Shown: piece after piece, positions 17,685 through 19,876 of the stretch
Layout of the letters: the number at the start of each line of letters is the position of its first letter
Numbering within the stretch: position 1 is the first letter of the stretch
IMG/VR virus record: IMGVR_UViG_2690316325_000023
DNA: 19,876 nt
Source of the DNA: a virus
Taxonomy: Duplodnaviria > Heunggongvirae > Uroviricota > Caudoviricetes
Strand: one strand, 5' to 3'
Position numbers and translations under genes: made by a program
The notes under the pieces: generated by a model
The model's input: the letters and a program-made list of their open reading frames with translations, nothing else
Told to the model about the DNA's origin: nothing
Databases searched by the model: none

Positions 17685-17996
17685 TTACTCAGGAAATAAC
17701 GCCCGGATATTCCCAGCCATCTGGCTGGTTATCTTAGCCACTGGTGCAGACTGTGCTTCAAACTTTTTTGAGCTGATTTGTGTCACAGGTAACATCTCAT
17801 CATCAGCCCATGCGGCCAGTCGGTAAGCCTCTGCCGGATTCGTCTTCAGAAGTGCCAGCCCGGCCAGAAAAGCCACGCGTTGGCCGCTTTTGCGGGCTTC
17901 TGGTGTAAGGCTGTCCAGCCAGGCGCATGCTTCTCCTTCGTTCTTGACGGCAGCTGGCTTCAGATAGAAACTTATTCTTCTGGTTGGTGTCGTCAT
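17685..17996 (-). CDS. parR: ParR/StbB-like centromere-binding protein (type II partition adaptor)
   Basis: 103 aa directly downstream of the ParM-like gene. RISFYLKP, LDSLTPEAR, RVAFLAGLALL and a C-terminal IRALFPE resemble R1/R100 ParR/StbB (TIAFKLNP, LDSIPQGER, AALTAGLAL, LRSLFP) as recalled from memory. Confidence 0.65.
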   Translation of the reverse strand: MTTPTRRISFYLKPAAVKNEGEACAWLDSLTPEARKSGQRVAFLAGLALLKTNPAEAYRLAAWADDEMLPVTQISSKKFEAQSAPVAKITSQMAGNIRALFPE

Positions 17997-18000
17997 TGGT

Positions 18001-18960
18001 TTACTCCTTGTTCATTGCGTACAGCCCATTAACCAGAGCAAATTGTGGCACTCCGTCCGCGATGAAAGTCGCATTAACTCCGCAGGCTTCGCGGATAGCG
18101 GGTGCCACAATCTCCGCCCCGCCACCGACAACCATCACCCGCCCGTAACCCGAAAAAACCGCCAGCGCGCGGATCACGCGTTGTTTCAGTGTTTCTTCCT
18201 TTTCACGAATAACCGCCATCAGGCTGGCGTAATGCGCGTCATTGTGGATGTGCTGGCGCAGCCAGGCTTCATCATGGCGATGTTCGATAATGGTATTGGC
18301 GATGTGGTGACTGGTGCGCATACCGTTAGTGGCCATCACCGACAGTACGGCATCGGCCATCAGGGAAACGCCTACGTGTGGATCGCAAAACACCTGGCTG
18401 ATACCTGCCAGTTGTCCCTGAACCTTTGCCACATCCAGCGTGGTTCCGCCTAAATCCACAATCAGCAGGGATTCAAACGGACTCATGTCAGCCAGTGCTT
18501 TAAAACCAGCCGGAATGGATTCAGGCATAACCCGTACGTTACGGATAGTGAATGCTTTTCCGTTCTGGTACGCCACCGGGCGCATGACGTTTGCTTTTTT
18601 GCGGTTGATGTTGGCCATGTCCGGCTGTGCGTTTGTGTCGAAATATTCGCTCAGTGGCAGGGTGACAACCACATCCACTTCCTGTGGTGTGATGCCTGAT
18701 TTGACCAGCGCGTGATGAATGGCAATGACATTCACATCGCTGTACTGGTATTGCGTGTCGGTCGTCTGGACAAAGCGATCGCTGACCGGATCAAAACCAT
18801 AGCGCACGCCATCAAGCATGTAGTTCGCGGGCTGCGTGCCACCGAACGGCGCAGACCATTCCGACTTGAAGCTGTTCGGGCTGATGGCGTTGCGGCGTTC
18901 GCCGTTCTCAGTCCATGCCAGCTTGATGTTGGTGGAGCCGTCATCGATACAAATTTTCAT
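18001..18960 (-). CDS. parM: ParM/StbA-like actin-family segregation ATPase
   Basis: 319 aa with the actin-fold phosphate and adenosine motifs IDDGSTNIKL, YSDVNVIAIHHAL, LIVDLGGTTLD, VMVVGGGAEI and LVNGLY; collinear similarity to plasmid R1 ParM over the whole length as recalled. Confidence 0.85.
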   Translation of the reverse strand: MKICIDDGSTNIKLAWTENGERRNAISPNSFKSEWSAPFGGTQPANYMLDGVRYGFDPVSDRFVQTTDTQYQYSDVNVIAIHHALVKSGITPQEVDVVVTLPLSEYFDTNAQPDMANINRKKANVMRPVAYQNGKAFTIRNVRVMPESIPAGFKALADMSPFESLLIVDLGGTTLDVAKVQGQLAGISQVFCDPHVGVSLMADAVLSVMATNGMRTSHHIANTIIEHRHDEAWLRQHIHNDAHYASLMAVIREKEETLKQRVIRALAVFSGYGRVMVVGGGAEIVAPAIREACGVNATFIADGVPQFALVNGLYAMNKE

Positions 18961-18994
18961 GTCGCTTTTCCTTATGTTGATTAATTAATCGTTT

Positions 18995-19087
18995 ACGGGA
19001 TTCTGAAATCCCGTTTTTGCCTGTTTTATGCGCGCTTCATATATCGCGGCGCGTTTTTTGCTCATTTACGGGATTTGTGAATCCCGT
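18995..19087. promoter_or_regulatory. Two copies of a 20-bp palindromic operator-like site (ACGGGATT-N4-AATCCCGT), 73 bp apart, upstream of parM
   Basis: Palindromes at about 18995-19014 and 19068-19087, each embedded in a ~37-bp direct repeat (tttacgggatt...aatcccgttt.tg.ctgtttt). The first is 35-55 bp upstream of the parM ATG; the second lies in the last codons of the upstream ORF. Confidence 0.45.
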
Positions 19088-19876
19088 TTCTGTCTGTTTT
19101 TTGTTTCCAATGGTCAGGCCACCCCGCAGCAGGTCTGCTTTGCGGCGGGCGCGTTCAGTGGTTTCACTGATTCTCTGTGCGTGCTCTGCGTCGCGGATGG
19201 CGCGCAGCATGTCAGAAAGCACGGTAACGGGTGTTTTCATGGTGTTCTGGTCTTGCTGAAGTGTGGATGCCAGGCGTGCGGCGGCTTCGGGGTCTGATGC
19301 CCCCAGCTGTTCCAGATAGCTGGCGACCGGGTTATAGCGGATCTCCGTGCTGCTTACGCCGTGGTTACGGCTCAGGCGCTGCCAGAGCTGCGTGATCCGG
19401 CTGTCCGGTCGGGTATCCGGTTTGCGTACAATTTCAAATCCCTGCGGTGCAATGATGCTGCCGTCAACGTACAGACTGCCGCCCCGTAACAGGTGCTGCA
19501 TCTGCTGTTCACCGATATGCAGGCCGAGAGATTCAGCAGACTCCCGCCATTCTTTAGCGAGTAATTCGTGGTTATCAGGCAAAGGCCGCTGCTGTTTGCG
19601 GCTCTGTGTCCAGCTCTGCATTTCATCACTGCTGTTTTTTGCCTGTTTGTCACGAAGCGAACGCATCAGCGCCCGGCGTTCGTGCCGTTTCAGTGAGCGC
19701 ATCCATTCGTTCACTTCAACGCCGTCAGGGAGCTGCGGCCACGGTGCTGGCCGTTCTTCCGGCTGTTCTGTCCCGTTGTTGTCCGTTTCCTGTACACGGG
19801 GACAGTTATTGCCACGAGTCCAAGGTGTCAACGACGGATGAAAAGTGATCCACTTATATCTCCACCAACGGCCCAA
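19037..19876 (-). CDS. Hypothetical protein, 5'-truncated by the window edge (at least 279 aa)
   Basis: Longest frame in this GC-rich segment, same orientation as parMR, running off the window end. Charged Arg/Gln/Glu-rich sequence; no family recognised. It could be the C-terminus of a replication or other right-arm phage protein, or part of the cargo. Confidence 0.45.
   Translation of the reverse strand: MGRWWRYKWITFHPSLTPWTRGNNCPRVQETDNNGTEQPEERPAPWPQLPDGVEVNEWMRSLKRHERRALMRSLRDKQAKNSSDEMQSWTQSRKQQRPLPDNHELLAKEWRESAESLGLHIGEQQMQHLLRGGSLYVDGSIIAPQGFEIVRKPDTRPDSRITQLWQRLSRNHGVSSTEIRYNPVASYLEQLGASDPEAAARLASTLQQDQNTMKTPVTVLSDMLRAIRDAEHAQRISETTERARRKADLLRGGLTIGNKKQTETGFTNPVNEQKTRRDI

Follow-up and report, generated by a model that had tools for sequence, protein, structure and literature searches.

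A candidate ParMRC partition module fixed beside gpA in P88-like prophages

INTRODUCTION

The actin-type (type II) partition system ParMRC of plasmid R1 and its IncF relatives, also named parA/stb, is arranged in the order repeats, parM, parR. The R1 centromere consists of ten iterons, and the C-terminal tail of R1 ParR is the part that binds ParM (entry 4a62). Phage D6 is a phage-plasmid, whose prophage is a plasmid. Comparable modules are also carried by elements that normally reside in the chromosome. SrpMRC stabilizes the transient, replicating circular form of the SXT/R391 integrative and conjugative elements (ICEs) (Carraro et al. 2015, PMC4489591). The Corynebacterium prophage CGP3 encodes the actin-like ATPase AlpC and the adaptor AlpA, whose DNA-binding site precedes the operon that encodes it; the two proteins are made soon after excision and work on circular CGP3 DNA, where their role is efficient replication (Donovan et al. 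2015, PMC4446434). Among P2-like phages, Rousset et al. (2022, PMC9122126) defined the interval between gpA and Q as an anti-phage hotspot, found a putative plasmid partitioning system in about a quarter of the phages and speculated that it might permit their maintenance as a plasmid. Here, we analyze a parM-parR cassette and its upstream repeats in IMG/VR record IMGVR_UViG_2690316325_000023, a 19,876-nt stretch of DNA (hereafter, the window) that belongs to a P88-like prophage of the P2 family (genus Xuanwuvirus, Peduoviridae).

The cassette poses a puzzle: an integrating P2-type phage that replicates by rolling circle keeps a plasmid segregation machine, and does so under strong purifying selection across genera. 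We consider it somewhat better than an even call that the cassette is a working type II (ParMRC) partition module, fixed in one P2-family lineage and acting on extrachromosomal phage circles. To this lineage belong the Xuanwuvirus (P88-like) phages together with related prophages from other members of the Enterobacterales. The cassette is common, annotated and already noted in print, and neither its observation nor its interpretation as a phage-plasmid trait is new.

RESULTS

An R1-type ParM and a ribbon-helix-helix ParR

The cassette's two genes and its upstream elements are located as follows.

18960..18001, minus strand: parM, encoding an actin-fold ATPase of 319 aa in the plasmid ParM/StbA family
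18969..18973, minus strand: Shine-Dalgarno sequence AAGGA, read from the sequence, its last base 8 nt upstream of the parM ATG
17996..17685, minus strand: parR, a 103-aa ribbon-helix-helix adaptor whose N-terminal DNA-binding domain is joined by a hypervariable linker to a conserved C-terminal tail, NIxxLFPE
18989..19030, unstranded: proximal 42-nt repeat, candidate centromere/operator (parC), containing the 20-bp palindrome 18995-19014
19062..19103, unstranded: distal 42-nt repeat, candidate parC, containing the palindrome 19068-19087 and lying within the last codons of gpA
19031..19061, minus strand: 31-bp core between the repeats, the promoter site in R1-type systems, with no consensus sigma-70 promoter detected

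The product of parM belongs to the ParM/StbA family of actin-fold ATPases, and its motifs for nucleotide binding and hydrolysis are intact. Pfam recognizes both of its domains, StbA_N (PF06406) at 6.9e-82 and the ParM C-terminal domain (PF21523) at 6.2e-69, and the structure of R1 ParM (1mwk) matches it from end to end (residues 2-316, E = 1.3e-92). Its identity is 47% to ~50% with R1-type plasmid ParM and at most 52% with other plasmid ParMs. In an alignment with five phage-linked and two plasmid ParMs, the phosphate-1 residues D6, D7, G8, S9, T10 and K13 are invariant, as are E147 and the phosphate-2 (D169, G171-T174) and adenosine (G279-A282) motifs. RefSeq annotates the ATPase as ParM, and PHROGs labels ParM and ParR alike as 'partition protein'. 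A preliminary description of the window had announced a complete ParM-like and ParR-like cassette in a P2-like prophage; the two reading frames and their Pfam and structure matches bear this out, and the 319-aa protein is indeed an actin-fold relative of ParM/StbA.

The parR gene begins 4 nt after the parM stop codon, and its product has the features of a small ribbon-helix-helix adaptor encoded directly 3′ of parM. ParR matches the Pfam family Plasmid_stab_B (PF10784) at 9.8e-24. A single-sequence search against the PDB gave no match; a profile built from eight ParRs was required to reach the ribbon-helix-helix ParR structure of pB171 (2jd3, E = 1.2e-13). The C-terminus of the window's ParR, NIRALFPE, aligns in sequence with the C-terminal residues KKNAMKLIN of R1-type ParR, and the tail of an IncFIA plasmid ParR, NNIKNLFPDDE, aligns there as well.

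Across copies of the cassette, parR is mosaic. It falls into two allele classes that are 54% identical, in which the first 18 codons, encoding the DNA-reading strand, and the last 8 codons are identical and enclose the hypervariable linker. Across these same copies, parM and parC stay ~97% identical. The breakpoints in similarity lie at window positions 17942 and 17851 and recur in many genomes, including O157:H7 and ST131. The loci compared are listed below.

17685-17996 of the window: parR
3741-4055 of locus L004: parR
3832-4146 of locus L005: parR
3741-4055 of locus L006: parR

Paired repeats at the junction of gpA and parM

Each of the two 42-nt repeats contains one copy of a 20-bp palindrome, ACGGGATT-N4-AATCCCGT, a pattern that occurs twice in the window where chance would give 0 occurrences. 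The direct repeats are spaced 73 bp from start to start. Conservation of the region is ~97% across seven copies from E. coli and phages, some of which have a few uncompensated substitutions in the palindrome arms. More distant relatives carry paired repeats of their own: two 26-nt direct repeats 72 bp apart at the same position upstream of parM in Plesiomonas, and inverted arms of 14-20 nt flanking a 26-28-nt core upstream of parM in Serratia and Enterobacter. In Enterobacter, the paired repeats remain beside parM even though two extra genes part parM from gpA. These upstream repeats fit a parC-like centromere or operator to which ParR may bind.

The palindromes have a second property. On the strand antisense to parMR and gpA, the hairpins upstream of parM (18995-19014 and 19068-19087) are trailed by T-runs, and terminator-like antisense hairpins also precede parM in the Serratia and Enterobacter relatives (locus L012, 7899-7914). 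Such hairpins could block late P-Q transcription from entering the early operon.

The preliminary description had credited the cassette with its own operator repeats, of which it named palindromes and a set of 22-bp repeats. The palindromes are real. The '22-bp repeats' are rejected as operators, as they are an exact 21-nt tandem duplication in variable DNA, outside the span that had been given for the cassette:

17628-17669: tandem duplication of TCTCTATAAACGTGAGCATTT, two exact 21-nt copies, just downstream of parR

The closest relatives hold this 21-nt unit in a single copy and P88 has an unrelated sequence at that place; the duplication is therefore a strain-level one and not a conserved operator. 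The same offset of +21 nt is seen in at least one other assembly (L022, GCA_000235225.1).

A fixed edge beside an exchangeable slot

The 1.5-kb cassette is present in 1304 of 5426 complete E. coli genomes (24%). These hold 1450 chromosomal copies and 2 on plasmids (1452 in total), with at most three copies per genome and two or three in ~10% of the carriers. The exact ParM protein of the window is indexed in 2301 blocks of an assembly collection, on contigs of up to several Mb. In the INPHARED phage collection, ParM is found in every P88-like record, covering all four Xuanwuvirus species, and the only other phage with a match is the phage-plasmid D6, at 47.8% identity. The cassette had been thought unusual for an integrative P2-type phage, a view that these frequencies, the RefSeq annotation and the earlier mention in print contradict. 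In its distribution, the cassette is what the preliminary description had named as evidence against its own reading, a gene set conserved among ordinary integrated P2-like phages.

Copies at least 95% identical occur in six records among 72,556 plasmids, and two of the four such records among the matches listed exceed 1 Mb, far above ordinary plasmid size. Genuine plasmid ParMs all reach at most 52% identity, and it follows that there has been no recent exchange with plasmids.

Homologues of ParM with 54-62% identity occur in Hafnia, Plesiomonas, Serratia and Enterobacter, in every case within P2-like prophages. All four genera keep one order: gpA, zero to two genes, parM, parR, different small genes, sometimes ogr, portal and terminase. 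The genes swapped among phages occupy the stretch from parR to the portal gene; they include HicAB, a KAP NTPase, a DUF4760 gene and an 89-aa open reading frame (ORF). The cassette itself does not come and go in the manner of hotspot cargo, being present in all four Xuanwuvirus species and syntenic in the four other genera. Its parM is intact in all eight of the E. coli and phage copies compared, with ratios of nonsynonymous to synonymous substitution rates (dN/dS) of 0.02-0.10. Because gene order is kept across genera and dN/dS is this low, we regard the cassette as fixed backbone beside the hotspot and not as swappable cargo. The preliminary description had placed it in an exchangeable, cos-proximal slot; the location between gpA and the cos/portal region is correct, and the exchangeable part is the stretch from parR to cos, with the cassette fixed beside gpA. 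For the mining of such hotspots, parMR is best treated as a fixed boundary of the gpA-Q interval and left out of cargo counts.

Neighbor joining divides the phage-linked ParMs into two groups, both with bootstrap support of 100%; support for their union to the exclusion of plasmid and ICE ParMs is 57%. A single old capture of ParM by the phage lineage is favored by this topology but not proven. Two further chromosomal ParM/ParR pairs, each ~50% identical, also lie on integrated elements: one in Dickeya, within an ICE with TraG, TraU and an integrase nearby (locus L028, 7001-8373), and one in Mangrovibacter, within an integrated F-like plasmid segment (locus L027, 7001-8361).

Residence in the chromosome and the gpA replication gene

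The integrase, C and cox genes are present in all relatives with a regulatory region that we examined (P88, strain 2014C-3075 and the circular record described below), and each relative examined carries the integrase. The closest complete relative, E. coli 2014C-3075, has a cassette 99.9% identical to the window's, in a chromosomal prophage beside pdxB with integrase, C and Cox. The sole annotated replication gene in these relatives is gpA, of the rolling-circle type, and no plasmid replicon gene is annotated. In the window, gpA and its surroundings are as follows.

19037..19825, minus strand: 3′ part of gpA, a P2 gpA-type replication endonuclease (263 codons), cut short by IS100; it lies immediately upstream of parMR in the same orientation
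19826-19876: terminal 51 nt of IS100 (IS21 family), inserted in gpA ~263 codons before its stop codon

The gpA fragment matches phrog_6857 at 1.3e-135 and also phrog_91, 'nicking at origin of replication', and the annotation of the gene in relatives is 'replication endonuclease'. Its stop codon lies at 19037 and its homology to intact gpA ends at 19825. Feature names under short plasmid matches had suggested IS30 for the last 51 nt; a check of the region excluded it in favor of IS100. With gpA interrupted by IS100, this copy of the prophage is probably replication-defective, and its cassette is probably idle there, though parM and parR are both intact.

An attP-type junction was divided into attL and attR in all 442 of the complete E. 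coli genomes that match it, and no contiguous junction was found among them, though a circular record with its ends at the junction would have escaped this search. There is one free circle: NZ_CP148288.1 (L015, 1-34461), a circular 34,461-bp 'plasmid' record in the complete-genome assembly of an E. coli isolate from a cat, is a whole P88-like phage, integrase included, joined at attP. A free circular form is therefore met with at least now and then, and can be abundant enough to be assembled.

Judged by location, the usual carrier of the cassette is not the low-copy extrachromosomal replicon of a ParMRC system, as 1450 of its 1452 copies are chromosomal and inside integrated prophages. Of the two marks of a phage-plasmid, neither an extrachromosomal prophage nor, in the annotated genomes, a plasmid-type replication module was found, with the circle NZ_CP148288.1 as the single exception to chromosomal residence. 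The traits of an SrpMRC-like system are present together: ParM-like and ParR-like genes, upstream repeats, an integrase and a transient circular form.

Possible expression with the early operon

A consensus scan of the minus strand from 18960 to 19300 found no sigma-70 promoter upstream of parM, and no coding-strand terminator was found after gpA. As a control, the same scan detects a promoter between the iterons of two plasmid parMRC loci. It found no usable consensus promoter before parM in four other phage lineages, making five with the window; the sites scored in the Serratia and Enterobacter relatives coincide in part with the start codon of parM and were discarded. These results weakly suggest that the early cox...A operon ends with parMR. 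In that case, ParM and ParR would be made together with gpA, while the genome replicates as a free circle, and would not be made in the repressed lysogen. In the O157:H7 transcriptome and proteome papers searched, nothing usable was found on expression of the CP-933T ParM and ParR in lysogens.

Proposed mode of action and alternatives

In the mechanism that we propose, ParR would bind as dimers to the pair of palindrome-containing repeats where gpA meets parM, and ParM-ATP filaments, caught by the C-terminal tails of ParR, would drive sister phage circles apart. Both proteins would be expressed by read-through of the early (cox...A) operon, at the time of gpA-driven replication. Since these are integrating phages, found in the integrated state, the module would most likely be active only while the phage is an extrachromosomal circle, either after injection and before integration or after excision. 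The effect would be that the phage is not lost from dividing cells, as with SrpMRC on excised SXT/R391 elements.

Several observations weigh against this proposal. Intact cassettes also persist in clearly defective prophages, in O157:H7 and in this window, which could mean a function at the level of the host or of the lysogenic state. ParM separates pairs of copies, and a lone circle that has not replicated would consequently gain nothing from it. In place of the ten iterons of R1, the candidate centromere has just two repeats, and its palindromes double as predicted intrinsic terminators on the strand antisense to parMR. The absence of a promoter is the outcome of a simple consensus scan only, and the literature searched on P88, Xuanwuvirus and P2-like ParM phages yielded no functional study of the cassette.

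If transient phage circles are partitioned, the division into integrated and plasmid prophages is too simple for a very common family of E. coli prophages, and the principle shown for the SXT/R391 ICEs has a second, phage-borne case. A bolder extension is that a quarter of the P2-like prophages of E. coli, those of the P88/Xuanwuvirus lineage, and their relatives in other Enterobacterales may pass regularly through an actively partitioned, plasmid-like phase after infection or excision, in which ParMRC would share out gpA-replicated circles to the daughter cells. We offer this extension tentatively and would not bet on it; if it holds, a higher yield of lysogens or a carrier state may result, and the line between integrating phages and phage-plasmids is blurred.

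The payoff may differ from inheritance. ParM filaments tethered by ParR could position or spread replicating circles during the lytic cycle, and thereby aid replication or packaging. The cassette adjoins gpA and is co-oriented with it, parC overlaps the 3′ end of gpA, and the lack of a promoter or terminator of its own makes co-expression with early lytic genes likely; AlpC/AlpA of CGP3 is a precedent (PMC4446434). However, the protein is a close R1-type ParM and not a divergent Alp, and other P2-like genera in the phage collection have no ParM match and so replicate without one. Such a lytic organizer would be compatible with partitioning of phage circles; we rate it as unlikely, though it deserves serious weight. 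As payoff we lean toward inheritance, with efficient lytic replication as its main rival.

A stable or facultative phage-plasmid, in which ParMRC keeps P88-like phages for long periods as low-copy plasmid prophages, is the interpretation raised by Rousset et al. (2022, PMC9122126) and, as a P2-type episome, by the preliminary description. A complete partition module and the whole-phage circle of NZ_CP148288.1 speak for it. The genomes speak otherwise: 1450 chromosomal against 2 plasmid locations in 5426 complete genomes, an attP-type junction split in 442 of 442 matches (with the same blind spot for records opened there), conserved integrase, C and Cox, gpA in the early block as the only annotated replication gene, and true plasmid ParMs at 52% identity or less, with no recent exchange. 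We find this reading very doubtful.

The preliminary description had also considered defense. Exclusion of plasmids or phages through parC-based incompatibility, or abortive infection through ParM polymerization, would suit the cassette's place within the anti-phage hotspot of Rousset et al. (PMC9122126) and the retention of intact copies in the defective prophages of O157:H7 and this window. No positive support emerged: ParM, ParR and the adjacent 89-aa ORF have no match in PADLOC-DB at E <= 0.01, the cassette keeps its place and synteny from genus to genus whereas it is the real cargo distal to parR (HicAB, the KAP NTPase and others) that is swapped, and the consensus scan did not find a promoter of the lysogen type. 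Cross-incompatibility is made unlikely by the low identity of plasmid ParMs (at most 52%) and by R1 iterons of unrelated sequence, and ~10% of carrier genomes tolerate two or three copies. We hold a defensive role to be highly improbable. Least credible is a functionless plasmid fragment captured once, which would explain the minimal two-repeat centromere and the missing consensus promoter, but is made unlikely by selection and synteny: dN/dS of 0.02-0.10, ParM motifs that are all intact, gene order held in five genera down to 54% ParM identity, and an exact ParM protein in 2301 assembly blocks.

Neighboring cargo and other features of the window

Downstream of parR, ~800 bp of variable DNA lead to a putative cos region, beyond which lie the portal and terminase genes. 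The sequence CTGTTCCCCCGTCACCTGCGC at about 16850-16880 resembles the cohesive-end core of P2 cos; this putative cos would be ~300 bp past the portal stop codon and ~800 bp from parR. The variable DNA holds one cargo region:

17002-17540: hotspot cargo region with an 89-aa ORF (17299..17030, phrog_3941, function unknown)

The 89-aa ORF has no Pfam or PADLOC match. Its region contains a promoter-like site (17535-17508) and a terminator (17022-17002), both on the minus strand. On the plus strand, a hairpin shaped like a terminator (stem 17429-17458, then TTTTG), which failed the terminator scan, comes after another promoter-like site (17332-17360); an antisense RNA of ~100 nt over the 5′ leader of the ORF could arise from this promoter-like site. 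An Rfam scan of 16500-19876 found no known RNA. Elsewhere in the window, Rfam IS009 (RF02111) matches at full length with 218 bits at 2681-2879 (minus strand), within the DNA-invertase gene of the tail-fiber inversion region.

Comparison with known systems

The cassette of Rousset et al. is almost certainly the same one, as it occupies the same gpA-gpQ interval at a similar frequency (PMC9122126). There, it is listed among the 'systems' of the hotspot and is not analyzed; here, it proves to be fixed at the gpA side of the interval, and the variable cargo lies distal to it.

Compared to R1/IncF ParMRC, the window's cassette shares the order of repeats, parM and parR, the nucleotide-binding motifs of ParM, and a ParR that likewise has the N-terminal DNA-binding domain and ends in a tail of the same type. 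In contrast, it resides on an integrating prophage and not on a plasmid, has two palindrome-bearing 42-nt repeats where R1 has ten short iterons of unrelated sequence, lacks a consensus promoter between its repeats and encodes a ParM of a separate, phage-linked lineage. The StbA/ParM of D6 is 47.8% identical, and D6 is a P1-like phage of 91 kb, whereas the P88-like phages are integrating P2-type phages of 31-40 kb.

AlpC/AlpA offers the likeness of an integrated prophage with an actin-like ATPase and an adaptor, but AlpC is a divergent actin-like protein of a phage in a Gram-positive host, and its shown role is in replication and not in segregation. SrpMRC, a ParM/ParR-type module on a normally integrated element, is the functional model that we adopt for the window's cassette. 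The host element of SrpMRC is conjugative, whereas that of the cassette is a phage, and SrpM and SrpR are described as only distant relatives of R1 ParMR (PMC4489591), whereas the phage proteins are close ones.

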